From a virus (Duplodnaviria; Heunggongvirae; Uroviricota; Caudoviricetes): a DNA stretch of 56,412 nucleotides. Shown here one piece after another: positions 18,539 through 35,489 of the stretch. The stretch lies in IMG/VR virus record IMGVR_UViG_2718218136_000004. One strand, written 5' to 3'. The notes beneath the pieces were generated by a model. That model was not told where the DNA came from and searched no databases. It saw only the letters and a program-made list of their open reading frames with translations. How positions within the stretch are numbered: position 1 is the stretch's first letter; each line of letters begins with the position of its first letter. The translations under genes were made by a program, and so were the position numbers.

Positions 18539-19021
18539 ATGTCAGGACCTCCGAAAACCCCGCCACGCCTGCATTTGATTCGAGGTAACCCCTCAAAGCG
18601 CCCCGTTAAAGACCACAAAAAAACCGCTAAAAAGGATGAAAAAGGTCTTCCTAAAATTCCGCAGCATTTAGGGGCTCAGGGGAAGTACTGGTTCAGGCGA
18701 ATGGCGGAAGAGCTGAATGCGGAAGGGATCATTTCTCAGCTTGATGCGCGTGCGCTCGAGCTGCTGGTGGAAGCCTACACCGAATATCGGCATCACTGCG
18801 AAACACTCGATGTTGAGGGGTATACCTACCGCACGGAAACGCAGAGCGGTGATGTACTGATTAAGGCGCACCCCGCGGCGGCAATGAAAGCGGATGCCTG
18901 GAAGCGGATCCGGGCAATGCTTGCAGAGTTTGGTATGTCACCGGCAAGCCGGGCTAAAGTAAATATCGCCGGACCGGATGATGTTGATCCGCTGGCGGAG
19001 CTTTTAAAAGCGAGAGACTGA
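18539..19021 (+). CDS. Terminase small subunit (P27 family)
   Basis: 160-aa ORF immediately upstream of and overlapping terL; similar architecture to the insert-encoded TerS. Confidence 0.75.
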   Translation: MSGPPKTPPRLHLIRGNPSKRPVKDHKKTAKKDEKGLPKIPQHLGAQGKYWFRRMAEELNAEGIISQLDARALELLVEAYTEYRHHCETLDVEGYTYRTETQSGDVLIKAHPAAAMKADAWKRIRAMLAEFGMSPASRAKVNIAGPDDVDPLAELLKARD

Positions 19022-20048
19022 TGGCAAAAGTGGCTGACGGGATCCGCTACGCCGAACGTGTTGTTGCAGGAGAAATTGTTGCTGGCGAATTTGTCCGCCT
19101 GGCCTGCCAGCGTTTTCTTGATGATCTGAAGTACGGCGAAGAGCGGGGGATTTATTTCAGTGAACCCCGTGCGCAGCACATCCTGAATTTCTACAAATTT
19201 GTGCCTCATGTAAAAGGGGCGCTGGCAGGCCAGCCCATTGAGTTGATGGACTGGCATGTATTTATCCTCATTAATATTTTTGGTTTTGTCATTCCGCTGG
19301 TCAATGAAGAGACCGGGGAAGTTGTCATGCGCAGCGATGGCAGCGGACGTCCGGTGATGGTGCGCCGGTTCCGGACGGCGTACAACGAAGTCGCCCGTAA
19401 AAACGCAAAATCAACTCTGTCATCGGGTATCGGCCTGTATATGACGGGGGCAGATGGTGAAGGCGGAGCTGAGGTGTATTCAGCCGCAACCACGCGTGAC
19501 CAGGCCAGAATCGTGTTTGAAGACGCCAAAAATATGGTCAGAAAAGCCCGGTCGACACTCGGGCGGTTGTTTGATTTCAACAAGCTGGCGATTTACCAGG
19601 AGCAGAGCGCATCAAAATTTGAACCGCTTTCTTCGGATGCAAACAACCTGGATGGTCTGAACATCCACTGCGCCATTATTGATGAGCTGCATGCACATAA
19701 AACCCGTGACGTGTGGGACGTTCTGGAAACGGCAACCGGTGCCCGTCTGCAGTCCCTTTTATTTGGTATCACCACGGCAGGGTTTAACAAGGAAGGGATT
19801 TGTTACGAGCAGCGTGATTACGCCATCAAGGTATTGCGTGGCTATAACAGCGACGTGGAGGGCGCGGTAAAAGACGACTCCTACTTTGCGATTATTTACA
19901 CCCTCGATGAGGGAGATGATCCGTTTGATGAAACGGTCTGGCAGAAAGCGAATCCTGGCCTGGGCATCTGTAAACGCTGGGATGATCTGCGTCGTCTGGC
20001 GAAAAAAGCGAAAGAACAGGTCTCTGCGCGGGTGAATTTTTTTACCAA
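19021..20048 (+). CDS. Terminase large subunit, 5' portion (ATPase domain), interrupted by insertion at 20042-20048
   Basis: N-terminal 342 codons align with the insert-encoded TerL up to ...ARVNFFTK; ORF then continues in frame into insert sequence and the integrase gene. Confidence 0.85.
20042..20048. repeat. attL crossover core (TTACCAA)
   Basis: Identical 7-bp core at 35490-35496; flanking sequence partially conserved (TT[T/C]TTACCAA). Confidence 0.5.
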
Positions 20049-20178
20049 GAAAGTAACATCACGCCGTAACAACAGTGCGACCTGTCCTGATTTTTTTAGT
20101 AACCAAATGAAAGAAAAAGTTTTTTTTCTTGTTCGTCGTTTTTGTTTTTTCTGGAAGGTTCTGGCTGTTTTCATCATT

Positions 20179-20200
20179 TGTGTATTGCACTGTGTATTGC
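20179..20200. repeat. Tandem TGTGTATTGC repeats near attL, candidate integrase arm-type binding sites
   Basis: TGTGTATTGCACTGTGTATTGC just upstream of int; near-identical GTGTATTGCGCTGTGTATTGC near attR. Confidence 0.45.
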
Positions 20201-20220
20201 AAAAACGGGTTATAAATCAC

Positions 20221-21444
20221 ATGGCGCTAAACAAACTGAGCGATAAAAAACTTCGTTCCCTGCTTGGACGCAGGAGTGAGAGGCAGGAAACCATCGCTGA
20301 TGGTAACGGGCTTTCGGTACGGGTCAGTAAATACGGATGTGTTAGTTTTGTTTTCTTTTACAGACTGGCGGGAAGGGGAACCGCGCCCATCTGGCTGACA
20401 CTTGGAAAATATCCTGATCTGAGTCTCAAATCAGCGAGAGAGATGCGCGATCAGTGTCGAACCTGGCTTGCGGAGGGCAGAGATCCACGGATTCAGATAA
20501 AAATTGAACGGGAAGCCACCTTGCAACCTGTTACCGTTCGTGAGGCACTTGAATACTGGCTTGATAATTATGCAATGGATAAGCGTAGGGGAGCAGAACA
20601 TATCAGGCAGTGCTTTGGTAAACATATTTATCCGGTGATTGGTCATGTACCACTTAGTGATTGCTCTATATCTATGTGGATCAAGTGTTTTGACAAAATA
20701 AAAAAAGTAGCACCTGTACAGGCCGGAGCTTTGTTGCGTATATCAAAACAGGCGCTTAAATTTTGTAGGGTAAGAAAATACGCGATTAGTCATGAAATTG
20801 ATGATCTTGAGGTCTGTGATGTGGGAAAAAAGTCTGCGCGAAGAAGCAGGGTTTTAACAGATGATGAAATCAGAGATTTATGGCGAAGTATTAATACTGA
20901 TTATGACAATCACGAATTATCATATGAAAACCGAATTATTTTACGTTTCCTGGTAGTTTTTGGTTGTCGACTGTCAGAAGTATTACTGTCGTCCTGGGTA
21001 GAGTGGGATTTTGATAAGAAATTATGGCGCGTTCCCGCTGATCATAGCAAAAATGGCAGGGAAATAATCAGACCGATTCCTGATGGCATGTTTAACTGGT
21101 TAGTTACGTTAAAAAAAATAACAGGTAACAAAGAAAATGTGATTGGGTTTGATATGCGTCAGTGTACGGCAAGCGTAACTATCGGTAAGACATGGAAAAG
21201 GATGAAACACTCGGAGAAATGGACGGCGCATGATATGCGAAGAGTGTTTGCCACAAAACTAAGTGATCATGGTTTTGAACATAATGTGGTTGAACAGTTG
21301 CTTGGGCACACATTAGGCGGTGTTGCCGGGGTTTATAACAGAAGCCAGTATATGGACAGAAAAAAAGAAGCTATGAACTGGTGGTACGACTATCTGAATA
21401 AGCAAATTAGTGGTGACAGTAATGATTCAAATAGTTACGCGTGA
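20221..21444 (+). CDS. int: P4-like tyrosine integrase of the satellite
   Basis: MALNKLSDKKLRSLLG... N-terminus typical of P4-family integrases; catalytic context FGCRLSEV, HDMRRVFAT, GVYNRSQY. Confidence 0.85.
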   Translation: MALNKLSDKKLRSLLGRRSERQETIADGNGLSVRVSKYGCVSFVFFYRLAGRGTAPIWLTLGKYPDLSLKSAREMRDQCRTWLAEGRDPRIQIKIEREATLQPVTVREALEYWLDNYAMDKRRGAEHIRQCFGKHIYPVIGHVPLSDCSISMWIKCFDKIKKVAPVQAGALLRISKQALKFCRVRKYAISHEIDDLEVCDVGKKSARRSRVLTDDEIRDLWRSINTDYDNHELSYENRIILRFLVVFGCRLSEVLLSSWVEWDFDKKLWRVPADHSKNGREIIRPIPDGMFNWLVTLKKITGNKENVIGFDMRQCTASVTIGKTWKRMKHSEKWTAHDMRRVFATKLSDHGFEHNVVEQLLGHTLGGVAGVYNRSQYMDRKKEAMNWWYDYLNKQISGDSNDSNSYA

Positions 21445-21475
21445 AGAACTTGAAAATGATGAAACAATCGACAGG

Positions 21476-21643
21476 ATGATTAAGGAAGATGAATGTGCAT
21501 GGTTAACCGCTCTTGGCAGGAGACACAGATCGTTACTTGAAAAGGAAGGAAAATTTCCACGAAAAATATGTATTGGCCCACAAACAAAAGTCTGGCGCTT
21601 ATCTGAGGTGCTGGAATGGGTAAAAGGTGAATGGAAACCCTGA
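21476..21643 (+). CDS. AlpA-family transcriptional regulator
   Basis: WLTALGRRHRSLLEKEGKFPRKICIGPQTKVWRLSEVLEWV fits the AlpA HTH pattern; start uncertain (alternative ATGs at 21410 and 21422). Confidence 0.55.
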   Translation: MIKEDECAWLTALGRRHRSLLEKEGKFPRKICIGPQTKVWRLSEVLEWVKGEWKP

Positions 21644-21666
21644 GTTAAATTAAATGAGATATAATC

Positions 21667-21690
21667 AACCCGTCTTTTGGCGGGTTTTTT
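21667..21690 (+). terminator. Intrinsic terminator after first alpA-like gene
   Basis: ACCCGTC-TTTT-GGCGGGT followed by T-run. Confidence 0.5.
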
Positions 21691-21706
21691 TATAGGTGAT
21701 ATTTTT

Positions 21707-21985
21707 ATGCAAAAATTTATTTATCCTACACCCGAAGAACGCATTCAGATTCTGAAAGATCATGGCGAACCGTATGATCGCCGTATACGCGAACATGAGT
21801 GTGCCAATCGTACCGGGCTTTCAAGAAGCAGACGTTGGGTACTTGAACAGGAGGGAGCATTTCCTGCTCGTGCTCATTTAGGGAAAGTGTCTGTTTCCTG
21901 GTTGCTCTCTGATGTGCTCTGGTGGGTTATGCATCCGCCAGGAGTAAAGGAAGTAAACAGCCCATACAAAAACGCCAATAAGTAA
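21707..21985 (+). CDS. Second AlpA-like regulator
   Basis: CANRTGLSRSRRWVLEQEGAFPARAHLGKVSVSWLLSDVLWWV fits the AlpA-like HTH pattern. Confidence 0.5.
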   Translation: MQKFIYPTPEERIQILKDHGEPYDRRIREHECANRTGLSRSRRWVLEQEGAFPARAHLGKVSVSWLLSDVLWWVMHPPGVKEVNSPYKNANK

Positions 21986-21995
21986 TTACCGACAA

Positions 21996-22024
21996 CCCCG
22001 CACCACGCAATGCGGGGTTTTTTG
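21996..22024 (+). terminator. Intrinsic terminator after second alpA-like gene
   Basis: CCCCGCA-CCACGCAA-TGCGGGG followed by TTTTTTT. Confidence 0.55.
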
Positions 22025-22042
22025 TATGTGAGGTAAAAAGCA

Positions 22043-22621
22043 ATGAATAAAAATATTGCCGTGACGGGCAAGGGTGACGCACGTCATGTGAAAAAATTCT
22101 GTGATATTCGTGATCTGGTCGTTCTGCGCTTTGATGGCGTGGATGTTCGTGTGGTGTATCTAAACGGCGATCCGTGGTTTGTTGCAAAGGATGTTTGTGC
22201 TGCGCTGGAACTGACCAATTCGCGTACGGCGTTGCAGATGCTTGATGATGACGAAAAGGGAGTAAATTTAACTTACACCCCCGGAGGAAATCAGAATATG
22301 AGCATTATCTCCGAGTCAGGTTTCTACAAACTAATAGCCCGCAGCCGCAAAGCAACGACGCCTGGCACATTTGCTCATCGTTTCAGTAACTGGGTATTCA
22401 GAAATGTGATACCGGGTATCAGAAAAACGGGGGCTTATGGTATCCCGTGGGGCGCATTACAGGATTTTTCCCGCCGCAAAGAGCAATACCAGATAAGTGC
22501 CAGCGAGAAGGGGAGGGAGCTACAGGCATGTAAGCGCAAAAAGCGTGAGCTGGAGGAAGAAGAAAAAAGGCTGATACGTGAATACCAGCCTGAGTTTTAC
22601 TTTGGTGAGCGTATTCAGTAA
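22043..22621 (+). CDS. Bro-N domain protein (antirepressor-like)
   Basis: N-terminal VRVVYLNGDPWFVAKDVCAALELTNSRTALQML matches the Bro-N/KilA-N antirepressor domain. Confidence 0.65.
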   Translation: MNKNIAVTGKGDARHVKKFCDIRDLVVLRFDGVDVRVVYLNGDPWFVAKDVCAALELTNSRTALQMLDDDEKGVNLTYTPGGNQNMSIISESGFYKLIARSRKATTPGTFAHRFSNWVFRNVIPGIRKTGAYGIPWGALQDFSRRKEQYQISASEKGRELQACKRKKRELEEEEKRLIREYQPEFYFGERIQ

Positions 22622-23064
22622 CCACACGCGGTGTTGATTATACGGTACATCGTGTTGACCGGGAAGCTACCCACCAGCAAGGCAAAATCTTCTGCTAAAA
22701 AATGACATATGACCAGTCGTCCGGAAAGCATGAAATTTTACAAAAATGGAAAATGAAGATTTTTATTGTGCTGGTGGGTAAAAACAAAAAGCGCCCCGTT
22801 ACCGGAGCGCCCTTGCGAACAATTAACCTACTGCGCAAAAAATGAATCTGTGCGGGGGGATTATATCAACCGTGGTCGAAATGACCATAGTTGCAGGATA
22901 ACAGGCAAAACAAAGGCCACCCGCTACGGTGGCCCCTTGACACAAGCTACACGTTATCCCCAACGCATGAGCATAACCAACAATGCCACATTTACGGCTG
23001 GTGGGCAAATCCTGAGCTGTTCTGTAATTACAGAAACTACGGCATTGTCGCGGTTAGGTTATGA

Positions 23065-23217
23065 TCAACTTTTTTTCAACTCTATATCGCAAGCACGCCG
23101 TAATATATCGCCTTCATTGCTTCCGCAAAGATTCTTTTTCTCGAAGCATGATTTTAAGATAAAGGCGGCGACAATTAGAACAATCGCACAGAGTGCACAA
23201 TTTTTAAGTTTTGGCAT
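23065..23217 (-). CDS. Small hydrophobic peptide (50 aa)
   Basis: [28 protein letters not shown]... with AGGAG RBS 7 nt upstream; downstream of an RHH-like gene on the same strand. Confidence 0.4.
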
Positions 23218-23271
23218 CTTTTACTCCTATGGTTGCCGCCGTGATTCCTCACACCACGGCGCTGGTGATGG

Positions 23272-23451
23272 TTATTCCTGCTCTTTGGCCTTGCGACGCT
23301 GGCGGTATTCAACTTCTCGCTTTAATGCTGCTGTTACAAACTGCCCTGTACTTTCACCAGGCATTTTTACCGCCTCAACATTGTTCATAACTTCATGCGG
23401 AACCCTTGCCGCAACTGTTTGTGATTTTGCGTTTACTGCTTTTGTTGCCAT
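23272..23451 (-). CDS. Ribbon-helix-helix-like small DNA-binding protein
   Basis: 59 aa; ...[17 protein letters not shown]...[16 protein letters not shown] fits an RHH strand-helix-helix pattern; adjacent to palindromic operators. Confidence 0.45.
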
Positions 23452-23501
23452 GTTGTGTACCCCTTACAAAAAACAAATGCAGTATGCAGGAAAAAAAATA
23501 A

Positions 23502-23553
23502 GTGTTCAACACTTGACGTGTTTAACACTAGGGCTTAAATTGGTGTTCAACAC
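23502..23553. promoter_or_regulatory. Satellite operator region: three GTGTT(C/T)AACAC palindromes between divergent operons
   Basis: Palindromes at 23502-23512, 23518-23528, 23543-23553. Confidence 0.45.
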
Positions 23554-23650
23554 CTTGCTGATGCAAGGTGCAGAAACGACGAAACCCGGCAGTGCGCTAA
23601 CACTAACCGGGCTTCTAACCACCAACGATAGAAAGCGTATCGAGGTAGCT

Positions 23651-24190
23651 ATGCTAAATCATACCACACACCCGCAAGGGCGGGACTCGCACAACCTGAA
23701 TAAACCCGATGTAAAAAACCTGTTGATCGCCACTGCCAGCCAGGGCTATGATTTACCCGCACCAGCAAAATCTGGTGCCGGGATTGGCGTCCTGGTATTT
23801 AACGAAGCGCACAACACGCGCCCTGCGTGTTTTTTTGTGCCGGATAGTCACACCTTATCAATGGTGGGCTGTATGGGGGCGGAGCAATCCGCGCCGGGTT
23901 CTTCGTTAACCGGTTACGCCAACCCTGTACAGTCCACCGCCAGCGAAATTGGCGTTTCCTGCGGTGGGTTTATTAAACCTAACGAAGAGGCTGCCAACAT
24001 GGCTACTATCCCTACCCTTGTACATTCCCAAACTGCCTTTATCTGGCGCTTTATCATCTTTGGCGCGTCAGAGTCCCAAATCATCCACGTCACCGCCTGG
24101 ACGGAACGCGAAGCGCGTAACCATTGCCCGTCAGGTTGTGTCGCTGTATTCGCCGCCCGTATTCGTCAGGGGGTGCGCCATGTGCAATAA
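23651..24190 (+). CDS. Hypothetical protein (first gene of satellite rightward operon)
   Basis: GAGG RBS before ATG at 23651; stop overlaps next start; amino-acid composition not strongly protein-like. Confidence 0.3.
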
Positions 24191-24425
24191 CACCCGTCCG
24201 GACGCAGCCGCCGAAGCCATCAAAACGCTGATGCACGCGCTGATTGATATTTCATGCACGGTAGCAACCGCAGAAAAACACATTACCAGAGAGACGGAAT
24301 ATACAGGGGCGATAATCCCGCATTCGCTGGCTTACGCACAGCTTACCGCTGATATGGCGCTGAATGAGGCTAAAGCCATCCTGATTGCTGATTGTGAAAA
24401 TGGCGGGGGCGATTATGCGAAATAA
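24180..24425 (+). CDS. Hypothetical protein
   Basis: 81-aa [28 protein letters not shown]..., start overlaps upstream stop. Confidence 0.4.
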
Positions 24426-24633
24426 ACATGATATTGAAGACCTGGCATTTGAAGCCCTGCACTCTGCGAAAAAAATCAGGGAAGTCGTCAATATGTGGAT
24501 GAACAGCCTTAGCACCGATAAATCCGATAGCAGAGAAGAAATTCTTATTTCTTTGTTGTTAGACCTGGCAAATACACAGGTTTCTCTGACATCTGATATT
24601 GAGCTCGCCGCTAAAAAGCTGCCTCTGGAGTAA
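24412..24633 (+). CDS. Hypothetical protein
   Basis: 73-aa [28 protein letters not shown]..., start overlaps upstream stop. Confidence 0.4.
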   Translation: MMRNKHDIEDLAFEALHSAKKIREVVNMWMNSLSTDKSDSREEILISLLLDLANTQVSLTSDIELAAKKLPLE

Positions 24634-24639
24634 AAAAAC

Positions 24640-24954
24640 ATGAAAAAGAAAAATTCTGGCTTTACTGCCAGCGGTCACGCTCGGCCTGAAATCCGCCCCG
24701 GTGATATTTTCCGGGATAAATACGGCAGCACGATAACGATTAAAACCGTCGATGATTTTCGTGTGACCTATATCCGCGAAGGTTATGCGCATCCCTGCGT
24801 GTCGTCACATATGCGCTTTGACAGGGAGTTCACCCTGGTAAGCAAAGCACCACCAGCAGAATTAAGCGACATCGACAGAATCATGCGCGTTACAGGAATG
24901 GAACGCATTAAGGCAGTACGTGAAATTATTCGTGAACGGGGAAAGGCAAAATGA
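24640..24954 (+). CDS. Hypothetical protein
   Basis: 104-aa ORF overlapping the start of the replication gene. Confidence 0.45.
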   Translation: MKKKNSGFTASGHARPEIRPGDIFRDKYGSTITIKTVDDFRVTYIREGYAHPCVSSHMRFDREFTLVSKAPPAELSDIDRIMRVTGMERIKAVREIIRERGKAK

Positions 24955-27077
24955 AGCGCGCACCAAACTTAAAGCACCAGCCAGCCGACAAAATGACGGA
25001 GGTTATCATCTTTGCGGGTAGTGATGCGTGGAGCCATGCGAAAGAGTGGCAGGAATGGGCAGGTAAGCATATTGCCGCCGACAATGTGCCGCCTGTCGTT
25101 CTGTCAGATGAACACCTGAAAGATATTACCGGTTATCAAATTATTGATGATAGCCGTCAGTGTGTGCGTATTTACCGCGCAGGGCACATCACTGAACGTA
25201 GCCTCACACAGATCGTCACGTTGCTGGCTGTGGCTGGCGTGAAGACCGTATACGAATACGCGGGGATAACTGACACCAGCCCGGCGGATTTATCCGACCA
25301 GTTGCCTCGCCTCAAAGACGAATACGAGCGCGGGGAAAGTCTGGTGTTGCCCTTAAAGAAAAAAATCACAGAAAGCCCGGGTGATGATGAATTAAAGCCC
25401 CGCGTTGAAAGCCGCGCCGATGGTGTTTTCTGGGTAACGCCAAAAGTGGATAAGCAGTCAGGCGAAATTATCCGGCCTGAAACGTGGTTATGCTCCCCGC
25501 TTGAGCTACTGGGAACGGGGACAATCGGCAAAGAGCATTACCGCGTGATGCGCTGGAAAAAGCCAGCAAACCATGAAGTCATCACGATGGCGGTTCCGTG
25601 CGGTGGCATTGGCGACCGTGACGGCTGGCGGCTGCTGAAAGACCACGGACTGAACGTGACAACCAACGGTAAATACAGGGCTATCCTGGCTGACTGGATG
25701 CAGTTAAGCGGAAACCATGAGGAATGGCAGTTAAGCACAACAACGGGCTGGCATTTTGGCGCGTACATCATGCCGGACGGTTCGGTCATTGGTGATTGCG
25801 AAAAGCCAGTCCTGTTTACCGGAAAAACGGCTGCCGTTAATGGTTATTCCGTGGCAGGAACGGCGGAGGGCTGGCGCGACAGTGTGGCGCGACTGGCTGG
25901 TGGTAATCCGTCCATGATGCTGGGTGTGGCGGTATCGCTATCCGCACCATTAATCGGGCTGGTGGGTGCTGACGGCTTCGGGGTACATCTTTTCGAACAG
26001 TCATCGGCAGGTAAGACCACAACGCAGAACATCGCATCAAGTTTATGGGGAGAGCCGGACGCGCAGCGGCTGACCTGGTACGGCACAGCGTTAGGTATCG
26101 CCAACGAAGCAGAGGCACACAATGACGGGCTTTTACCCCTGGATGAAATAGGCCAGGCCGGAAACGCGCGGGAGGTGTCCACGTCAGCCTATACGCTGTT
26201 TAACGGTTCGGGGAAATTACAGGGGGCGAAGGACGGCGGCAACAGGGAGATCAAACACTGGCGCACGGTGGCAATCAGCACCGGAGAAATGGACGTTGAG
26301 ACATTCCTCAAAACGGAGGGGATAAAAGTCAAAGTGGGGCAGCTTGTCCGCCTGCTTAACGTTCCGATGGAAAAAGCCACGCAATTTCACGAATACAGCA
26401 CCGGAAAGGCGCACGCAGACGCGTTAAAGGATGCCTGGACAGAAAATCACGGGGCGGCGGGTCGTGAGTGGGTTAAATGGCTGGCAGAACACCAGCAGGA
26501 GGCAAAGGACACGGTAAGGACATGCCGTGAGCGGTGGCGCAACCTGATACCGGAGAGCTACGGCGAACAGGTTCACCGTGTGGGGGAGCGATTTGCCATA
26601 CTGGAGGCCGCGCTTGTGCTTTCAGGTCATGTTACTGGCTGGGATGAGCAGGAATGCCGCGATGCCATACAGCATAATTTTAATGCCTGGGTGAAGGAGT
26701 TCGGCACGGGTAACAGGGAATTTAAACAGATGGTTGAACAGGCAGAAGCTTTTTTAGCGTCGTTCGGATTCAGCAGATACCTTCCGTGGCCCAATACCGA
26801 CGAGCGTGATTTACCGATTAAAGAACTTGCCGGATACAGAAAGGGGAGTATCAGAAACGAAGATGACGAGTTCCGTTTTTACACGTTCCCGCATGTATTT
26901 GAGGGTGAGATAGCACAGGGATTTAATCCGTCTCACTTTGCCCGCGCGTTGAGTGCTGCCGGAATGCTGGAAGCGGGTAACGATCGCCGTTACAAGAAAA
27001 AGGCGCTCGGCAAAATTGGGGGGAAGCAGCATGTTTTTTACGTGCTGATGTTCCAGCCAGAAAGCGAAGAAGATTAA
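24951..27077 (+). CDS. Satellite replication initiator, primase/helicase-like P-loop NTPase (DUF927-like)
   Basis: 708-aa ORF with Walker A-like SSAGKTTTQN; immediately upstream of an iteron/AT-rich origin and an SSB gene. Confidence 0.6.
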   Translation: MKRAPNLKHQPADKMTEVIIFAGSDAWSHAKEWQEWAGKHIAADNVPPVVLSDEHLKDITGYQIIDDSRQCVRIYRAGHITERSLTQIVTLLAVAGVKTVYEYAGITDTSPADLSDQLPRLKDEYERGESLVLPLKKKITESPGDDELKPRVESRADGVFWVTPKVDKQSGEIIRPETWLCSPLELLGTGTIGKEHYRVMRWKKPANHEVITMAVPCGGIGDRDGWRLLKDHGLNVTTNGKYRAILADWMQLSGNHEEWQLSTTTGWHFGAYIMPDGSVIGDCEKPVLFTGKTAAVNGYSVAGTAEGWRDSVARLAGGNPSMMLGVAVSLSAPLIGLVGADGFGVHLFEQSSAGKTTTQNIASSLWGEPDAQRLTWYGTALGIANEAEAHNDGLLPLDEIGQAGNAREVSTSAYTLFNGSGKLQGAKDGGNREIKHWRTVAISTGEMDVETFLKTEGIKVKVGQLVRLLNVPMEKATQFHEYSTGKAHADALKDAWTENHGAAGREWVKWLAEHQQEAKDTVRTCRERWRNLIPESYGEQVHRVGERFAILEAALVLSGHVTGWDEQECRDAIQHNFNAWVKEFGTGNREFKQMVEQAEAFLASFGFSRYLPWPNTDERDLPIKELAGYRKGSIRNEDDEFRFYTFPHVFEGEIAQGFNPSHFARALSAAGMLEAGNDRRYKKKALGKIGGKQHVFYVLMFQPESEED

Positions 27078-27099
27078 TTTTTTCTCGCGTGTAGGGTGA

Positions 27100-27255
27100 A
27101 AATTTTGCGGGTTATGCGGGTTATTTCTGTGGATAAATCAGTATCCATATGATTATTAAAGGAATGACAGGAAAATCGTAACCCGCAAAATACCCAAAAT
27201 AACCCGCAAAACGGCAGTTATAACCCGCAAAAGTGCGATTATAACCCGCAGAATT
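27100..27255. repeat. Candidate satellite origin of replication: GCGGGTTAT x2, AT-rich spacer, ATAACCCGCAAAA x4
   Basis: Inverted iteron sets flanking an AT-rich segment immediately 3' of the replication gene. Confidence 0.6.
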
Positions 27256-27313
27256 TCACAGTAAGGGTGTAAACAAGCGTAACTATCAACGTTAAAACCG
27301 GAGAACAGACAGC

Positions 27314-27739
27314 ATGACAGCACAGATAGCGGCTTACGGGCGGCTGGTGGCTGACCCGCAGTTAAAGACCACCAGCAAGGGGACACAAATGGCTATGGCG
27401 AGTATGGCGGTTCCCCTGCCGTGCAGCCAGGCAGATGAAGGAACGGCGACGATGTGGTTATCCGTCCTGGCGTTTGGCAGACAGGCCGATGCACTGGCAA
27501 AACACCAGAAAGGCGAACTGGTGAGTGTGGCGGGTAACATGCAGGTAAGCCAGTGGACAGGCCAGAACGGCGAAATGCGGCAGGGCTGGCAGGTCATCGC
27601 AGACAGCGTAATCAGTGCGCGAACGGCGCGACCGGGCGGCAAAAAAGGCCAGCAGGGCCAGGCTACTGACGCACTGAACAGGGCAAAACAACAGACAGGC
27701 CAGCACGATGATCCGTACGGGGACGGGATACCGTTTTAA
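27314..27739 (+). CDS. Single-stranded DNA-binding protein (SSB-like)
   Basis: 141-aa ORF ending ...DDPYGDGIPF, resembling the acidic SSB C-terminal tail (DDDIPF). Confidence 0.6.
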   Translation: MTAQIAAYGRLVADPQLKTTSKGTQMAMASMAVPLPCSQADEGTATMWLSVLAFGRQADALAKHQKGELVSVAGNMQVSQWTGQNGEMRQGWQVIADSVISARTARPGGKKGQQGQATDALNRAKQQTGQHDDPYGDGIPF

Positions 27740-27754
27740 GCAGTGAGGTACAGC

Positions 27755-28051
27755 ATGATTAAAGACAGCAAAGCGGAAGAACTGGAGGCTAAAGGGCTGT
27801 ACCGGAGAGCGGCGGCACGTTGGGCTGATGTTATGTGGCTGGTGAGCACTGACAAGGAGCGCGAACAGGTGGCAAAGCGTCGCGCGGAATGTATCCGTAA
27901 GGCAGCGCGTCAACCAGTCATACCGGATAATTTCGGAATACTGAAAGAGGCCATAAACCGCACACATACCGGGATGGGCTTACAGAAACCTGGCGGTGAG
28001 ATGTTCAGGAACTACCCGAAAAAAAAAGGGATAATTGATAACGGTTGTTAA
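27755..28051 (+). CDS. Hypothetical small protein
   Basis: 98-aa ORF with GTGAGG RBS. Confidence 0.4.
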   Translation: MIKDSKAEELEAKGLYRRAAARWADVMWLVSTDKEREQVAKRRAECIRKAARQPVIPDNFGILKEAINRTHTGMGLQKPGGEMFRNYPKKKGIIDNGC

Positions 28052-28083
28052 CTGTTTCTGGTATCGTGGCAGCAGGAGGAAAC

Positions 28084-28332
28084 ATGCCAGTGACATTTGA
28101 AGAAGTCCAGCAACATAAAAAGCTTCATGATTTTGATGATCTGGAAACCACGACAGTAAAAAAATATCGCCGGCTGCTTTCTTCCGATGCGTTATTTTTT
28201 GTGGATCATCATGATTTTCTGCGTAGCTCACTGACCGGGGAAATTTTCGCAACCAACCGTGAGCAGGTGGAAGCGATGATCGAATATCTGTGGAAAATAA
28301 GACGCAGAATGCGGGATCCAGTGAAACAATAA
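28084..28332 (+). CDS. Hypothetical small protein
   Basis: 82-aa ORF with AGGAGG RBS. Confidence 0.45.
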   Translation: MPVTFEEVQQHKKLHDFDDLETTTVKKYRRLLSSDALFFVDHHDFLRSSLTGEIFATNREQVEAMIEYLWKIRRRMRDPVKQ

Positions 28333-28605
28333 AGCGATAAAGGCCTGGATTTTTTTCAGGTCTTTTTTCAGGTTTTGTAAATTATTTGTTCGTGGTTGTT
28401 CCAGGTTGTTCGGTGATTCTGGCTGATGTTTACATACTGATTTTTATGTATATGTTGGCGTGTGGCACTCAGACGTGAGCCGCCACAATGCCGCCTGACC
28501 CCCTGCGCGATGCCGGGTTGATCTGCGAGATGCCGAGAGTGTCGGGCGGCGCTCCCTCCGTGTTGGTTTCACGTCCTGAATCTTAACCAATACGAGAAAA
28601 CCTTC

Positions 28606-29775
28606 ATGAAGAAATTAATCGAACTCCGCCAGCAAAAAACCGCCCTGAAAAACCAGATGCGATCCCTGCTGGAAAAAGCCGACAGTGAAAACCGCAGCCT
28701 GAACGATGACGAGGGCAAACAGTTTGATGAACTGCGTGCAAAAGCCGATTCCCTCGACACAGAAATTTCCCGCCTCGAGTCTGTGGCTGATGAAGAACGC
28801 AGCAAGCCAGGAACGGGCATCCAGAAATTATCATCTGATGAATTGCGTAACTATATCGTAACCGGAGATGTGCGATCACTGTCCACCAGCACTGACAGCG
28901 GCAGGGATGGCGGATATACCGTAATTCCTGAGCTTGATCGCGAAGTCATGCGCCAGCTACAGGATGACAGTGTTATGCGCGTGATCGCGACCGTGAAGAC
29001 CGCAAAATCAAATGAGTTTCAGAAACTGGTTTCCACTGGCGGCGCAACTGTAGGAAGAGGCACAGAAGGCAGCGCGCGCAGCGAAACCAACACCCCGAAA
29101 ATTGAACGCGTAACCATCAAGCTGAATCCGATCTACGCCTACCCGAAAACCACGCAGGAAATCCTGGATTTTTCAGAGGTGGATATTCTGGGCTGGTTAT
29201 CCTCCGAAATTGCCGACACGTTCGCCAGCACCGAAGAGGATGATTTTGTTAATGGCGACGGTAACGGCAAGCCGAAAGGATTCATGGCTTACACCCGTGC
29301 GGCGACCAGTGACAAAACCCGCGCTTTTGGCACCATTGAAAAAATGGTAGCGGCAAGTGGAACCGCCATTACAGCGGACGAACTGATCGACATTCTCTAC
29401 AAGCTGAAAGCGAAATACCGCAAAAATGCCGTCTGGGTGATGAACTCGGGCACGGCAGGGACACTACAGAAGCTGAAAAATGAGAACGGCGATTATATCT
29501 GGCGCGACAGCCTTAAAGAAGGTGCGCCGGATATGTTGCTTGGTCGTCCTGTTTACTGCCTGGAGTCCATGCCGGACATCGGCGCAGGAAAAGCACCGCT
29601 AGCGGTTGGCGATTTCAGTCGTGGTTATTTCATCGTTGATCATGTAACAGGGATTCGCACCCGACCGGACAACATTACTGAACCCGGATTCTACAAGGTC
29701 CACACGGATAAATATCTGGGCGGTGGTGTGGTGGATTCAAACGCCATCAAAATTCTGGAAATGAAAGCTGGCTAG
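28606..29775 (+). CDS. Satellite major capsid protein (HK97 fold) with N-terminal coiled-coil delta domain
   Basis: 389 aa; C-terminal region co-linear with the prophage capsid protein (38304-39509). Confidence 0.8.
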   Translation: MKKLIELRQQKTALKNQMRSLLEKADSENRSLNDDEGKQFDELRAKADSLDTEISRLESVADEERSKPGTGIQKLSSDELRNYIVTGDVRSLSTSTDSGRDGGYTVIPELDREVMRQLQDDSVMRVIATVKTAKSNEFQKLVSTGGATVGRGTEGSARSETNTPKIERVTIKLNPIYAYPKTTQEILDFSEVDILGWLSSEIADTFASTEEDDFVNGDGNGKPKGFMAYTRAATSDKTRAFGTIEKMVAASGTAITADELIDILYKLKAKYRKNAVWVMNSGTAGTLQKLKNENGDYIWRDSLKEGAPDMLLGRPVYCLESMPDIGAGKAPLAVGDFSRGYFIVDHVTGIRTRPDNITEPGFYKVHTDKYLGGGVVDSNAIKILEMKAG

Positions 29776-29787
29776 TCATGAGTAAGG

Positions 29788-29810
29788 AGGAGGCTGCGGC
29801 CTCCTTTTTC
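29788..29810 (+). terminator. Stem-loop with T-run after satellite capsid gene
   Basis: AGGAGGC-TGCG-GCCTCCT followed by TTTTT. Confidence 0.4.
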
Positions 29811-29829
29811 AGCTTTATGGAGTACACCG

Positions 29830-30390
29830 ATGAAAAACACCGATTTTGAAATCCGCACATCTGAACTGACCGCCAGCGATAAAAAACTGGTGGGTTATGC
29901 CGTTCGCTGGAACAGCCTTTCAGAAATTATCTGGGACGAATTCCGCGAACAGTTCACGCCGGGGGCTTTTGCTGACTATCTGGCGGCGGGTAATGATGTG
30001 CGCTGCCTGTATGAGCATGACTATACCCAACTGCTGGGGCGCACCAAATCCGGCACTCTGGTACTGACTGAGGATAACACCGGGTTACGTTTTGAGCTGA
30101 CACCGCCGGATACCCAGCTTGGAAAAGATGTGCTTACGCTGGTGGAGCGTGGCGACATTACAGGAATGAGCTTTGGTTTTCGCGCATTATGCGAGGAGTG
30201 GAGTATCGCGCAAAAACCGTATTTGCGTACCGTAACTGCCGCAGAACTCCGTGAAATCACGATAACGTCGATGCCTGCTTATCCCGAATCCGGCGTGGAG
30301 ATTGCCCACCGTTCGTTGTTTGCACAGCACCCTGAATTACGCCCGGCAGGAAATAATCGTCATCGCTGGGCTGAACTGGCGGGGTTGTGA
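29830..30390 (+). CDS. Satellite prohead protease (HK97 family)
   Basis: 186-aa ORF similar in N-terminus to the prophage protease; between capsid and portal genes. Confidence 0.75.
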   Translation: MKNTDFEIRTSELTASDKKLVGYAVRWNSLSEIIWDEFREQFTPGAFADYLAAGNDVRCLYEHDYTQLLGRTKSGTLVLTEDNTGLRFELTPPDTQLGKDVLTLVERGDITGMSFGFRALCEEWSIAQKPYLRTVTAAELREITITSMPAYPESGVEIAHRSLFAQHPELRPAGNNRHRWAELAGL

Positions 30391-30391
30391 T

Positions 30392-31615
30392 ATGTGGTGG
30401 CCTTTTAGTCGTAAAAAAAGCGAGCTGCGTAACCTGTCCATTGATGATTTTCTGGCGCTGTCCGGCGTACCGAATACCGGAGCCGGAGAATATGTTTCTG
30501 CCGGGACGGCTGAATCATTGCCTGCTGTGATGAACGCGGTTTCTGTCATCGCTGAGGCGGTGGCCACGATGCCGTGTTATCTGTATCTGGTACGTAATGA
30601 CAAGGGCAGGGAGGCGCGGGAATGGTTGGACAGTCACCCGGTCGATATTCTGCTGAATGAGCAGCCTAATTCGTGCCAGACACCTTACCAGTTTAAACGC
30701 ACAATGATGCGTCACTGCCTGCTGAACGGTAACGCCTATGCGGTTATTGAGTGGGGGCGGGACGGTCAGCCAAAATCACTTCATCCTTATGCGCCGGGGT
30801 GTGTTGTACCGGAACGCACAGGCGCACACAAATACCGCTATACCATCACCGAACCCTATACAGGAACGGTGCGCACGTATTTACAGGAAGAAGTTCTGCA
30901 TCTCCGCTATGCCTCGGATGATGGCTTTCTGGGGCGCTCCCCTGTCACGATTTGCCGTGAGGCACTTGGGCTTGGCCTTGCTCAACAGCGCCACGGAGCC
31001 AGCATTATGAAAGATGGCATGATGGCGGCAGGGATTATCACGTCAGGCGAATGGCTGGACGGCGTGAAAGGTAAACAGGCATTGGATGCTCTGGAACGCT
31101 ACAAGGGGGCGAAAAATGCCGGAAAAACGCCAATCCTTGAAGGGGGCATGGATTACAAGCAACTGGGAATGAGTAACCAGGATGCGGAATGGCTGGCCTC
31201 CCGTCGCTTCTCCATTGAAGACATTGCCCGTATGTTCAACGTATCGCCTATTTTTCTGCAGGAATACAGCAATAGCACCTACAGCAATTTCAGCGAGGCA
31301 AGCCGCGCGTTTCTGACCATGACAATGCGCCCATGGCTGGCGAACTTCGAACAGCAAATCAAGGCTGCTTTGCTGGTGGCTTCTCCCGTACCTGGTACCC
31401 GTTATCTGGTTGAGTTTGATTCAGCCGATTTACTGCGCGCCACACCTACCGAACGTTACGCCACGTATGAGAAAGGAATTAAGAACGGGATCATGAATCC
31501 GAACGAAGCCCGTGAGCGTGAGGGAATGCCGCCGCGTGAAGGTGGCGACGAGTTCAGCCAGGCATGGAAGCAGGAAGTGACAATCAGCAAGAACAGTAAG
31601 GGCGGTGACGAATGA
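30392..31615 (+). CDS. Satellite portal protein (HK97 family)
   Basis: ATG at 30392 after protease stop; segments homologous to the prophage portal (36420-37661). Confidence 0.8.
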   Translation: MWWPFSRKKSELRNLSIDDFLALSGVPNTGAGEYVSAGTAESLPAVMNAVSVIAEAVATMPCYLYLVRNDKGREAREWLDSHPVDILLNEQPNSCQTPYQFKRTMMRHCLLNGNAYAVIEWGRDGQPKSLHPYAPGCVVPERTGAHKYRYTITEPYTGTVRTYLQEEVLHLRYASDDGFLGRSPVTICREALGLGLAQQRHGASIMKDGMMAAGIITSGEWLDGVKGKQALDALERYKGAKNAGKTPILEGGMDYKQLGMSNQDAEWLASRRFSIEDIARMFNVSPIFLQEYSNSTYSNFSEASRAFLTMTMRPWLANFEQQIKAALLVASPVPGTRYLVEFDSADLLRATPTERYATYEKGIKNGIMNPNEAREREGMPPREGGDEFSQAWKQEVTISKNSKGGDE

Positions 31616-31950
31616 TAGCCGGAAATATGCGGGACCGGGTGACGATTATGACATTTACCACACAGCGCCTGCCGTCAGGTGCGATCCAGCAGATATGGAC
31701 GGAAGGGGAAACCATCTGGGCAGAGGTCAAGGGGATCAGCGGACGGGAATTACTGACCGCAGGCGCAGAAACCGCACCTGCAACGATTCGGGTATGGGTT
31801 CGCTATCGTGGCGACATATCCGCCGCCAGTCGCCTGAAAGTGCTTACCGGCGCTTTTGCCGGGAGCACGCTTAATATCATCGGGATCCCCTTACCTGATG
31901 CGAAAAGAACCCGGCTGGAAATTCTGGCAAAGGTGGGTACAGAAAAATGA
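31612..31950 (+). CDS. Satellite head-tail adaptor / head closure protein
   Basis: 112 aa, about 60% identical by eye to the prophage homologue at 40074-40412 (shared TIWAEVKGISGRE, RLEIL). Confidence 0.7.
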   Translation: MIAGNMRDRVTIMTFTTQRLPSGAIQQIWTEGETIWAEVKGISGRELLTAGAETAPATIRVWVRYRGDISAASRLKVLTGAFAGSTLNIIGIPLPDAKRTRLEILAKVGTEK

Positions 31951-32243
31951 CAGCAGAAAAAATAACCCTGGAAGAGGCCAAACTTCACTGCCGCATAGAT
32001 GGTAACACAGAAGACACACTGATTCAGGCATACATAAGCGCGGCGCTGGAGGTATGCCAGAAGCATATTGGCAGGCGTTTTGATGACGGCCTGGAATTTA
32101 CCCCTGCAATAAAAATTGGTTGCCTGATGTACATCTCGCAACTGTACGAGTACCGGACAACGCTTGGCGATACCGATACAAAAGAAATTCCCCTGACGAT
32201 TTCCGCGCTCTGGTCGGTTTATCGTGATGTGGGGGTGTACTGA
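31947..32243 (+). CDS. Satellite head-tail connector (gp6-like)
   Basis: 98-aa ORF; related to the prophage protein at 39760-40065 (shared CRID...N...E pattern). Confidence 0.6.
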   Translation: MTAEKITLEEAKLHCRIDGNTEDTLIQAYISAALEVCQKHIGRRFDDGLEFTPAIKIGCLMYISQLYEYRTTLGDTDTKEIPLTISALWSVYRDVGVY

Positions 32244-32683
32244 TGCCATGGCAACCATTAAGGCGATGCACTGAGCCGGGCTGTAATAAGCGCGTGAAGT
32301 CCGGCAAGTGTGAAGAGCACAGGCGGGCTGCATGGCGTGCAGAGGATGCCAGACGGGGACACCGCCGCGCACGTGGGTATTCCCGACTGTGGGACAAATA
32401 CCGCGCCATGTACCTGAAAAAAAATCCGTTATGCGTGCGTTGTCTGGCTAAGGGTATTTATACGCCAGCTCTTGTGGTGGATCACATCATTCCCATCAAT
32501 GGCGGCGGTGATGTTCTCTTCTGGCCTGAGTGGAACCACCAGGCATTGTGCCAGACGTGCCACAACCGTAAGACGACACGGGAAGATCCAGCCACGAAAG
32601 CGAACCGTAAGGCGGGCATGTATCGCGAGCAGGAAGAACGGGCGGCACATCGTAACGACTGGATGTATGGCGATGATGACTGA
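32243..32683 (+). CDS. Satellite HNH endonuclease
   Basis: Cys-rich N-terminus and VVDHIIPINGGGD...ALCQTCHNRKT HNH motif; upstream of terS. Confidence 0.8.
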   Translation: MPWQPLRRCTEPGCNKRVKSGKCEEHRRAAWRAEDARRGHRRARGYSRLWDKYRAMYLKKNPLCVRCLAKGIYTPALVVDHIIPINGGGDVLFWPEWNHQALCQTCHNRKTTREDPATKANRKAGMYREQEERAAHRNDWMYGDDD

Positions 32684-32971
32684 ACAGGAGCAAAACAGGC
32701 TGATACGTGGACTGATAAGGCAGCGTGACTTATGGAAGACACAGGAGACAGGGCACAAAGCCAACAGGACAGAGCGCACAGAACGCACCACAGCGAAGCG
32801 ATTAACCGACCGTGACCGCGAGGTCATGGAATGTTTTCGCAATCGCTGGTGAGGCCGTCAGAGGGGGTGGGGGAGGTTTTCAGGACGAAACCGCCCCTGC
32901 CGGACACCGACCGCCTCCTCAAATTTTTGTGCACGGGAATTTTTTTGAAAATAATTGGGCGAAAAAAGAAC

Positions 32972-33328
32972 ATGGCAAGACCACCAAAAGCCCCCGCTTA
33001 CCTGGATGAAATCGCGGTCAGGCAGTGGAAGGAAAAATCGCGCCAGCTTTCCGGGCGGGAAGACCTTACCCCCGCCGACTGGAGCAATCTGGAACTGTAT
33101 TGTGTTAACTACTCCATATACCGCAAAGCCGTCGAAGACCTTGCGACGCGCGGGTTCAGCATTGTTAACAGTCAGGGCAGCGAGAGCAGAAACCCCGCCC
33201 TGAGCGCAAAGGCTGACGCGGAAAGAATAATGATCAAAATGGCTTCTTTGCTGGGTTTTGACCCGGTAAGCCGCCGCAGAAATCCACCGGAAACAGAGGA
33301 AGAGGACGAGCTTGACCGCCTGGCATGA
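32972..33328 (+). CDS. Satellite terminase small subunit (P27 family)
   Basis: Start at MARPPKAPAYLDE... (ATG 32972); upstream of and overlapping terL. Confidence 0.65.
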   Translation: MARPPKAPAYLDEIAVRQWKEKSRQLSGREDLTPADWSNLELYCVNYSIYRKAVEDLATRGFSIVNSQGSESRNPALSAKADAERIMIKMASLLGFDPVSRRRNPPETEEEDELDRLA

Positions 33329-34973
33329 GTACGCAGAAGGCGTAAAAAACGGCAAAATTACGGCCTGTAAACGACTGAAACAGGCCGTTAAACGGTATTT
33401 TTATGACCTTGAAAACCCCCTTTACACGTTCGAACCGGAGGTCGTGGAGCGGTTTATTGCCTTTTCCAGGGTGTGTCCGCACGTAAAAGGCGCAATGCGT
33501 GGTAGCCCCATTGAGCTGGAGCCGTGGCAGCAGTTCGCCTTTGCGTGCATCCTGGGCTTTAAGGTTAAGGCCACCGGACGGCGCAAATACACCAGCGCAT
33601 TCATTGAAGTACCGCGAAAAAATGCCAAATCCACGGTCGCCGCTATCCTGGCTAACTGGTTTCTGGTTATGGAAAACGGGCAGCAGGATATTTACACCGC
33701 CGCCGTGAGTCGTGATCAGGCGCGGATCGTGTTTGATGATGCGCGTCAGATGTGCCTTTTATCCCGACCGTTACGAAAGCGGGTAAATATTCAGGCACAC
33801 AAGGTGATACACCCGAAAACCAACAGCCTGTTAAAGCCACTGGCAGCAAAAGCGGCAACCATTGAAGGTACAAACCCGAGTCTTGCCATTGTAGATGAAT
33901 ATCACCTGCACCCTGACAACGGGGTTTATTCCGCGCTTGAACTGGGAATGGGGGCGCGTCCGGAGGGGTTATTATTTGCCATCACCACATCGGGGAGCAA
34001 CGTTGTTTCAGCCTGTAAACAACACTACGACTATTGCTGCCAGATACTGGATGGTGAAGAGGTGAACGAATCCATGTTCGTACTGATTTACGAGCTGGAT
34101 GATGAAAGCGAGGTTGACGATCCGGCGATGTGGATAAAGGCGAATCCCAATATCGATGTTTCCGTCGATCGTGAAAAACTGGCCTCAACCATCCAGAAAG
34201 CGCGGGGTATTCCGTCGCAGTGGGTGGAAATGCTCACCAAGCGATTCAATATCTGGTGTCAGGGGGCTACGCCGTGGATGGGTAACGGTGCATGGGCGGA
34301 GTGCGCCGGAACGTTCGCGGAGGCGGATTTATACGGGCAGGAGTGCTACGTGGGGCTGGACTTATCATCAACCAGCGATATTTCTAGCGTGTGCTATGCC
34401 TTTCCGGTCGGTAAAAAGATTATGCTGGTTTCCCGTCACTATCTGCCGGAATTTCAGTTACAGAACCCCGCCAATAAAAACCGCGCCATTTATCGCCAGT
34501 GGGTAAAGGCGGGCTGGATACGCACAACACCGGGTGACTGCATTGATTATGACCGTATCCGTGATGACATCATGGTGGATGCAGAGAATTTCAGTATCAG
34601 GCTGGTGGGCTTCGATACATGGAACGCCACTCACCTGAGAACACAGCTACAGGGGGCGGGATTTGAGGTGGAGCCGTTCCCGCAAACGTACCTTCGTTTC
34701 AGTCCGGCGGCGAAATCGTTCGAAGTTTTTGTTAACCGGAAGGTGATTGTGCATCGTGGTGATCCGGTGCTGGCCTGGTCAATGAGTAATGTTGTGATGC
34801 AGAGTGACGCGAACGCCAATATCAAGCCGAACAAGAAAAAATCATCCAACAAGATAGACCCGAGCGTTGCGGCGCTGATGGCGTTTGGCACATTCCAGGC
34901 AGAGCATGAGGAATTTGCATTCGATATGAGCGACAGCCACAAAGAGCGGCTTGCGACGTTTGATGGTGTGTAA
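33312..34973 (+). CDS. Satellite terminase large subunit, intact
   Basis: 553-aa ORF co-linear with both fragments of the split prophage terL (ATPase and nuclease domains). Confidence 0.85.
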   Translation: MTAWHEYAEGVKNGKITACKRLKQAVKRYFYDLENPLYTFEPEVVERFIAFSRVCPHVKGAMRGSPIELEPWQQFAFACILGFKVKATGRRKYTSAFIEVPRKNAKSTVAAILANWFLVMENGQQDIYTAAVSRDQARIVFDDARQMCLLSRPLRKRVNIQAHKVIHPKTNSLLKPLAAKAATIEGTNPSLAIVDEYHLHPDNGVYSALELGMGARPEGLLFAITTSGSNVVSACKQHYDYCCQILDGEEVNESMFVLIYELDDESEVDDPAMWIKANPNIDVSVDREKLASTIQKARGIPSQWVEMLTKRFNIWCQGATPWMGNGAWAECAGTFAEADLYGQECYVGLDLSSTSDISSVCYAFPVGKKIMLVSRHYLPEFQLQNPANKNRAIYRQWVKAGWIRTTPGDCIDYDRIRDDIMVDAENFSIRLVGFDTWNATHLRTQLQGAGFEVEPFPQTYLRFSPAAKSFEVFVNRKVIVHRGDPVLAWSMSNVVMQSDANANIKPNKKKSSNKIDPSVAALMAFGTFQAEHEEFAFDMSDSHKERLATFDGV

Positions 34974-35049
34974 CGGAATGGATGAGAGAGGACAATGCTC
35001 ATTTAATGGAATAAATTTTCAGTATTATCGGCACCCACTTTCAGGGATG

Positions 35050-35210
35050 TTTTTGCGGGTTATTTGAGTGGTGTTTGCGGGTTATTTTGAATGTCTTGCG
35101 GGTTACATTCTGGCTGATATTTAGATACGTTGTTTTTTAACGTATTGATATTAAAGAGTAAAAAATACTTAGCACGCGAAGATAACCCGCTAACCCGCAT
35201 AACCCGCACT
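35050..35210. repeat. Second iteron cluster near the satellite right end: TTGCGGGTTA(T/C) x3, AT-rich spacer with palindrome, ATAACCCGC x3
   Basis: Same motif and inverted architecture as the cluster at 27100-27255. Confidence 0.5.
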
Positions 35211-35393
35211 GTTTTGTATATATATACGAAAAATTGCATTCAGGGGGGGATCGAAATTTCTACTGCCTCTTATCTCTTTGAGTGCTCACCTCGTCAGATT
35301 GTTACACACAAGAAATAAAAAATGCTTCGCGATGGTAGGTCGAATCACTGTATCAAAAAACGGTGTGTATCAGCATTAAAACAATACAGATAC

Positions 35394-35414
35394 GTGTATT
35401 GCGCTGTGTATTGC
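35394..35414. repeat. GTGTATTGC repeats near attR, candidate integrase arm-type sites
   Basis: GTGTATTGCGCTGTGTATTGC; further GTGTAT / CAATAC copies at 35361-35390. Confidence 0.45.
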
Positions 35415-35489
35415 TCGATGATTTATAAAGACTGTTTTTTCATGTTAACTGATTGATATACAGGTGATTTTAAAAAACTTGAAATATTC

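Follow-up and report, generated by a model that had tools for sequence, protein, structure and literature searches.

The window analysed here is a 56,412-nt stretch of viral DNA (IMG/VR record IMGVR_UViG_2718218136_000004) in which the large-terminase gene terL of a helper prophage is split in two. The 5′ fragment (19021–20048, + strand) carries codons 1–343 and ends in the heptamer TTACCAA, which covers codons F341-T342-K343 at 20042–20048 (the attL core). A second + strand copy at 35490–35496 (the attR core) directly precedes the 3′ fragment (35497–36226, + strand), which holds the remainder of the nuclease domain with the stop codon and which in relatives is annotated ‘terminase TerL endonuclease subunit, missing N-terminus’. 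In between are 15,441 bp of satellite-specific DNA (20049–35489, + strand), assigned to a helper-embedded capsid-forming PICI-type element. Near its left end lies the gene for a 407-aa tyrosine integrase (int; 20221–21444, + strand) with the Pfam domains Arm-DNA-bind_3 (residues 6–92; E = 1e-17) and Phage_integrase (residues 211–377); its putative catalytic motifs (R-H-R-Y) were picked out by eye as GCRLSE (248), HDMRR (337), LGH (361) and VYNR (371). Two alpA-family genes follow on the + strand. One (21422–21643; Pfam Phage_AlpA, start taken from the RefSeq annotation of Escherichia coli 042) overlaps the int 3′ end and is a candidate excisionase or regulator; the other (21707–21985) is identified by Pfam Phage_AlpA and by RefSeq annotation.

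Over its first 2,652 bp (20049–22700, int included) the element shares 99.7% identity with the one in E. coli 042. The latter is annotated, in order, with int, two AlpA genes, BRO-N, an Icd-like gene, DUF927 primase, SSB, PerC, major capsid, prohead protease, portal, head-tail connector, HNH, TerS and TerL. Pfam annotation of the window ORFs agrees, finding a tyrosine integrase, two AlpA proteins, Bro-N, DUF927 primase and a second TerL, whose domains fall on 33312–34973. The int, alpA, primase and packaging genes all lie on the + strand, the direction of helper terL and its late operon. Read from this gene set and the 042 annotation, the element is a capsid-forming PICI-type satellite of ∼15.4 kb. 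Its occupied junction occurs in 35 of 5,426 complete E. coli genomes, with the element ending in terL in all 35; together with the empty-site comparison below, this bears out the proposal that the satellite is integrated in terL.

Two relatives illustrate how such loci vary. At the same site E. coli 2014C-3075 (L381) has an element with a TCACGAA core in which a RepA-family helicase replaces the DUF927 primase, so that the replication module is mosaic within the site group. The locus in E. coli GF31 (L384; NZ_CP172152.1, 2760000–2767200) is a decayed helper-satellite composite: a remnant with attL, int, two alpA, Bro and Icd-like genes, deletion-fused to a prophage tail-fibre fragment beside potB.

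Excising 20049–35496, that is, joining 19021–20048 to 35497–36226, yields an in-frame TerL of 585 aa with the Pfam domains TerL_ATPase and TerL_nuclease. A 903-nt query across the rejoined junction found full-length matches at ∼99.7% identity in ∼905 of the 5,426 complete E. coli genomes, annotated as terL in every case. The uninterrupted terL of L002 reads AATTTTT-TTACCAA-ACACATG; this attB equals the attL left flank, the heptamer and the attR right flank at every base. BLAST alignments of ∼900 empty terL genes end precisely at the last base of TTACCAA, and the block of attP/attB identity is bounded by one mismatch on either side. We define the junctions by these empty sites because the heptamer alone is not significant: the window holds 10 bare copies against 6.3 expected, and a control drawing pairs of 87-nt windows at random found a block of at least 7 nt in common in 3.9% of them. 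The bare heptamer count, a candidate line of evidence for the core, was accordingly dropped in favour of the empty-site comparison.

The preliminary description of this locus, made from the sequence, quoted both junctions and placed TTACCAA at 20042–20048 and 35490–35496, and these letters are exactly as given there; the partial conservation it saw just upstream of the core is AAT[T/A]TT[T/C], matching at 5 of 7 positions. It further proposed a 7-bp crossover core for a satellite integrated in terL, in agreement with the published helper-embedded PICI (HE-PICI) site group A:Terminase_1:246, and remarked that such a core is very short for a P4-type integrase. The length stands and the anomaly does not. 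Tyrosine integrases require identity only across the strand-exchange overlap of ∼7 bp, longer att identity arising when attP carries a replacement 3′ end for the target gene (PMC10111431). This element brings no replacement for the terL 3′ end, and terL is deliberately interrupted; attP and attB therefore have only ∼7 bp in common.

Three smaller features touch on the core. Direct repeats GTAACATCA and GTAACAACA, 13 nt apart, adjoin the attL core on the element side (20053–20074) and might be a core-type or accessory-protein site. Inverted-repeat core-type sites were sought by eye around the overlap, where only weak symmetry was seen (TTC to the left of the core and GAA to the right, with 5/9 over longer arms). 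The satellite's own terL, whose product is 33% identical to helper TerL, reads TCACCAA at the homologous L-T-K codons (34234–34240); this matches the core at 6/7 positions and is identical to a rare natural attB allele, with flanks unlike attB.

In related elements the core takes three alleles, TTACCAA, TCACGAA and TCACAAA, all encoding F-T-K and thus synonymous. Among the elements for which both junctions were recovered, attL and attR carry the same allele in 13 of 13 pairs (8 TTACCAA, 4 TCACGAA and 1 TCACAAA), although these pairs are not phylogenetically independent. The element-side flanks (…ATATTC, GAAAGT…) and the terL-side flanks stay constant across the core variants. The empty attB sites, of which 120 were sampled, comprise 93 TTACCAA, 14 TCACGAA, 10 TCACAAA, 2 TCACCAA and 1 TTACTAA. 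In a capsid-gene site group (L177+L163, L194+L222), attL and attR differ directly to the left of a shared AAGCA, with AAGCCGA against TAACCCA; this suggests that the crossover there would lie to the right of the variable positions. Such mixed pairs mean that the allele test is able to detect discordance where identity is not required. The comparative evidence, 13/13 concordance within the core as against flanks that differ between attP and attB, is supportive of an identity requirement over an overlap of 6–8 bp.

The second component of the attachment sites is a doubled motif built on the 8-mer TGTATTGC. The P′ arm copy, tgTGTATTGCactgTGTATTGCa (20179–20201, + strand), lies 20 nt upstream of the int ATG; the P arm copy, cgTGTATTGCgctgTGTATTGCt (35393–35415, + strand), is co-oriented with it. 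The doubled motif proper spans 20181–20200 and 35395–35414, the exact 8-mer beginning at 20181, 20193, 35395 and 35407, all on the + strand, where ∼1.5 copies would be expected in the window; one further, unrelated copy lies at 49067 on the − strand. As 10-mers, TGTGTATTGC is found at 20179–20188, 20191–20200 and 35405–35414, and CGTGTATTGC, with one mismatch, at 35393–35402. For the 20-nt doubled pattern TGTATTGCNNNNTGTATTGC chance predicts 0.03 occurrences in the window; two are present, a count reached in 0 of 100 shuffles. A repeat test using the 10-mer with two mismatches proved uninformative (39 matches, 56 expected) and was replaced by the exact 8-mer and the doubled pattern. Tandem repeats near both ends of the element, as originally proposed, are thus confirmed, with the correction that the second pair starts at 35393 rather than 35394.

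The published site-group motif is tgTGTATTGCantgTGTATTGCa (a doubled tgTGTATTGCa), present as two copies in the same orientation, one 81±2 bp upstream of the attP centre and the other 132±2 bp downstream (PMC10111431). In the attP of our element the end of the P copy lies 76 bp before the core and the start of the P′ copy 133 bp after it. Measured to the core centre, the distances are 78–80 bp to the upstream end and 132–134 bp to the downstream start, according to the base chosen as centre; from the central core base they are 78 and 134 bp. With the centre taken as in that study, the spacing agrees with the published values within their tolerance. The tandem repeats of the preliminary description thus match the published account: those of the two arms share one orientation and stand about as far from the core as in lambda. 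Extra copies had also been proposed at 35361–35390. These are degenerate: the motif-like copies at 35364–35390 (no strand assigned) are TGTGTATCAG, with three mismatches, and an inverted TCTGTATTGT, with two. They are kept among near-identical relatives only and are missing from the P arms of other site groups, and so their significance appears doubtful.

A motif-first scan was made of IMG/VR contigs, finding the doubled motif and then comparing the neighbouring ORFs and attR-side copies. At many loci the motif lies 17–26 nt upstream of integrases of 401–415 aa that start with MA(G/A)ENKLSD. This survey of related elements, which the preliminary description had called for, recovered the doubled motif upstream of int, and its attR-side counterparts, with more than 12 different and unrelated flanks. 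We then compared the junctions of 11 other attL/attR pairs, each with both members on one contig, at the offsets predicted from this window. In 9 pairs a block of identity falls at the expected place or a few nucleotides from it; in the remaining two, L208 and L250, the longest shared block is elsewhere. Such blocks include the 10-nt AACCCAAGCA and TAAAGGCGAT, and a diverged A_246 member shares 15 nt, AATTTTATAACAAAG. A scan of genome contigs with the 16 specified bases of the doubled motif returned, among the matches listed, mostly chance hits in unrelated phyla; the relevant ones among those listed are in Erwinia (L021), Xenorhabdus (L075) and Kluyvera (L111).

Several loci from these scans depart from the common arrangement. 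In the P′ arms of another site group (L149, L150, L168 and L174) a third TGTATTGC copy lies 22 nt downstream of the doubled motif, between it and int, so that the arm half-sites are not always four. In Xenorhabdus bakwenae (L075; NZ_CP119194.1, reverse-strand position 792) the doubled motif and an integrase of the same type adjoin an EamA-family transporter gene, with no phage late gene at that site, and the host is outside Enterobacteriaceae; this is a chromosomal or off-target site of a motif-bearing element. Its element-side flank matches that of L141, which lies near the start of what looks by eye like a lambda-type portal gene; Pfam found no family for the L141 gene. The doubled 8-mer TGTATTGCAAGTTGTATTGC and close variants, some with AATT and ACAT spacers, occur in the Cytophagales Larkinella (L038), Dyadobacter (L031), Spirosoma (L006) and Fibrisoma (L032). 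In L038 and L031 it is just upstream of ORFs of 470 and 448 aa, that of L038 being a Bacteroidota-type tyrosine integrase (Phage_int_SAM_5 + Phage_integrase); no long ATG-start ORF was recovered downstream of it in L006 or L032. These may belong to an unrelated arm-site system that coincidentally has the same 8-mer.

The P arm also holds an exact match to the IHF consensus, WATCAANNNNTTR (TATCAATCAGTTA), at 35446–35458 on the − strand, 31 nt after the arm motif and 31 nt before the core; by this match it is a putative IHF site. In L210, a diverged A_246 element, the consensus is likewise matched exactly at this offset and on this strand, and in other site groups sites close to the consensus recur at a fixed offset. 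As background, 0.8% of 82-nt windows contain an exact match, and 7.8% contain one when up to one mismatch is allowed. In the P′ arm of this element no strict IHF consensus was found. IHF sites in these attPs are not mentioned in PMC10111431.

The integrase of the window aligns with those that follow this motif in other site groups at a mean identity of 52%. We compared domains among 11 such integrases, all downstream of the motif and pairwise <90% identical. Mean pairwise identity is 67.5% for the arm domain (residues 1–92; minimum 60%), 47% for residues 93–205, the core-binding region, and 49% for the catalytic domain. Such a pattern would be expected of an arm domain that reads a motif which does not vary, next to a core-binding region that changes as targets change, and is indirect evidence for that division of labour.

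Between the left junction and int no sigma-70 promoter or terminator consensus was found, and a promoter and terminator scan of both junctions gave nothing above background. With int co-oriented with terL and no such consensus between them, helper late transcription probably reads through into int and times excision; read-through from the helper late operon into satellite int has been proposed before (PMC10111431). The terL 5′ fragment is moreover in frame with int with no intervening stop, making an 807-aa ORF (19021–21444). The fusion is set by the length of a T-tract at about 20120–20127: among 19 related loci on viral contigs the fusion is present in 5, the frame of the other 14 closing at most 39 codons upstream of the int ATG, and E. 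coli 042 is fused. A functional terL′-int fusion of 807 aa was rejected as a candidate, the frame being a T-tract length polymorphism limited to those 5 of 19 loci and E. coli 042; the fusion has likewise been treated as an annotation artefact (‘reannotate term_int fusion’; PMC10111431).

Taken together, these data make it very probable that the window holds the attL and attR of a helper-embedded capsid-forming PICI-type satellite of site group A:Terminase_1:246, inserted at terL codons 341–343. A P4-like tyrosine integrase would insert the satellite at these codons of the helper prophage terL, with strand exchange inside the 7-bp TTACCAA, the sole stretch where attP and attB would need to be identical. 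The two doubled TGTATTGC motifs supply four half-sites, to which an integrase tetramer most likely binds through its N-terminal Arm-DNA-bind_3 domains, probably helped by IHF-type bending of the P arm and by an excision factor of the AlpA family. Integration splits TerL within its nuclease domain and would leave the helper without TerL until the satellite excises, and precise excision would restore …AATTTTTTTACCAAACACATG…. We infer that the window element can excise from the empty sites and from its sister element 11capE, for which excision has been shown experimentally (PMC10111431).

Whether Int itself binds the arm motif is the point on which an alternative has most to say. The doubled TGTATTGC motif could instead be a target of AlpA or some further factor, and so serve excision, transcriptional control or, as an operator, int itself. 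Tommasini, Mageeney and Williams left the binding protein as Int, AlpA or another protein, explicitly allowing the latter two and calling AlpA tightly conserved (PMC10111431); int is followed by an alpA gene in every case, and the short distance from the P′ copy to the int ATG, 20 nt here and 17–26 nt in all groups, would suit an operator. The same motif stands in the other arm as well, at a fixed distance from the core and far from gene starts, and four half-sites of one orientation, spread over the two arms, would suit a tetramer whose subunits have arm domains. Binding to a single arm is usual for excisionases. Across the nine elements with AlpA data, mean pairwise identity is 47.6% for AlpA against 66.8% for the Int arm domain, though the motif is invariant; domain conservation thus favours Int over AlpA as the probable motif reader, and we regard binding by AlpA or another factor as unlikely, while giving it a real chance.

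The extent of strand exchange is open to a similar question, since cleavage points cannot be placed from sequence alone. Exchange might be offset from the heptamer or extend into the imperfect 14-bp block AATWTTYTTACCAA with mismatches tolerated, given that attB and attP match at 12 of its 14 positions and that the diverged A_246 member shares the longer 15-nt block noted above. Such an extension sits poorly with the positions flanking the heptamer, at which no E. coli element has the same bases in attP as in attB, with heptamer positions 2 and 5, which agree between attL and attR across three alleles, and with the identity blocks across the group, which intersect at the heptamer; we judge it improbable. 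Still less credible to us is that the element is an immobile remnant whose att sites are fossils of a past insertion. The reconstructed attP junction (…GAAATATTC-TTACCAA-GAAAGTAAC…) was absent from the IMG/VR contigs, JGI metagenome contigs and complete E. coli assemblies searched, at least one relative (that of strain GF31) is a truncated remnant, and many helpers look truncated (PMC10111431). Set against these points, the int ORF is intact, as are the arms and cores at both ends, the element is found at three attB alleles, its relatives have different replication modules (RepA versus DUF927), and the sister element excises experimentally.

Several known systems share parts of this architecture. 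The attP of lambda Int combines arm-type and core-type sites with a 7-bp overlap, IHF and Xis. Both have a tyrosine integrase that is heterobivalent, its arm-binding domain being N-terminal; in both, each arm has direct-repeat sites ∼80–150 bp away from an overlap of 7 bp, and the P arm matches the IHF consensus. Here, however, the arm domain is of another family (Arm-DNA-bind_3), the arm-site sequence is another, and there are exactly two doubled sites rather than 2 + 3. The P4 attP recombines at tRNA-Leu (leuX) with ∼20 bp of identity that restore the tRNA 3′ end. The two integrases belong to one clade in the broad sense and have the same Arm-DNA-bind_3 + Phage_integrase architecture, whereas in our case only the 7-bp overlap is shared and the target is not restored. 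In regulated gene integrity, or ‘active lysogeny’, as with Bacillus subtilis skin in sigK and Listeria phi10403S in comK, a gene is likewise split by an integrated element and restored by timely precise excision; here the interrupted gene is the helper phage's, and the regulation benefits the satellite, not the cell. Such elements are discussed in PMC10111431.

Closest of all are the ‘helper-embedded PICIs’, which Tommasini, Mageeney and Williams (2023, NAR Genom Bioinform lqad036; PMC10111431) described from late genes of prophages, 14 sites in all. Supplementary File 1 of that study lists group A_Terminase_1_246 with att identity ‘ttaccaa’ and, as Eco33.15, the E. coli 042 element. The window element has the same terL codons (NFFTKH), ‘ttaccaa’, attL and attR flanks, doubled motif, spacing and co-orientation as this site group; there is no essential difference, the window element being ∼200 bp longer than that of 042 and a fused-frame variant. 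The split of terL at codons 341–343 is an insertion in a prophage late gene, as in HE-PICIs generally, and the integrase falls in the HE-PICI clade as judged by the 99.7% DNA identity to the listed 042 element and the 52% integrase alignment. Capsid-forming PICIs (cf-PICIs; prototype EcCIEDL933; Alqurainy et al., bioRxiv 2022.09.08.507074) resemble it in having their own packaging set from capsid to TerL and no tail genes, and further in size (∼15 kb, in a class of 10–18 kb), in the position of int at one end and in the order int-alpA-replication-packaging. As a class, cf-PICIs also make small capsids of their own and borrow nothing but tails from the helper. They differ in target: for cf-PICIs six attB sites on the E. 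coli chromosome are reported (bioRxiv 2022.09.08.507074), whereas this element lies in a gene of the helper prophage.

The core, motif, spacing and site group were thus already published in 2023 (PMC10111431); among the later papers searched, none was found to use the term HE-PICI. What is new here is minor: the concordance of core alleles, the conservation of the arm domain, the positioned IHF-like site and the finding that the extra repeats are not conserved. Our result mainly confirms, from raw sequence, biology present in the literature since 2023 and recoverable without recourse to it. Exact knowledge of the att architecture permits precise mapping of nested elements, whose terminase and integrase genes otherwise come out of annotation pipelines as broken or fused, and the architecture amounts to a compact and portable attP of ∼260 bp for integration into phage genomes.

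The variant cores invite one further, tentative thought. At least three synonymous core alleles are present among helper terL genes, and each has satellites whose attP core matches it. Variant identity blocks are listed in PMC10111431, where they are not analysed as helper/satellite co-evolution. The core could be a site of co-evolution at synonymous positions, with helpers escaping by silent changes and satellites tracking them, a possibility that we rate as worth entertaining and nonetheless more likely wrong than right by some way. The companion idea, that an invariant arm motif read by a conserved Int arm domain holds the rest of the intasome fixed meanwhile, is equally tentative. For the helper the consequence of such an insertion is direct: with a satellite inside its terminase gene, DNA packaging by the helper would be blocked until excision, while the satellite brings a TerL of its own.
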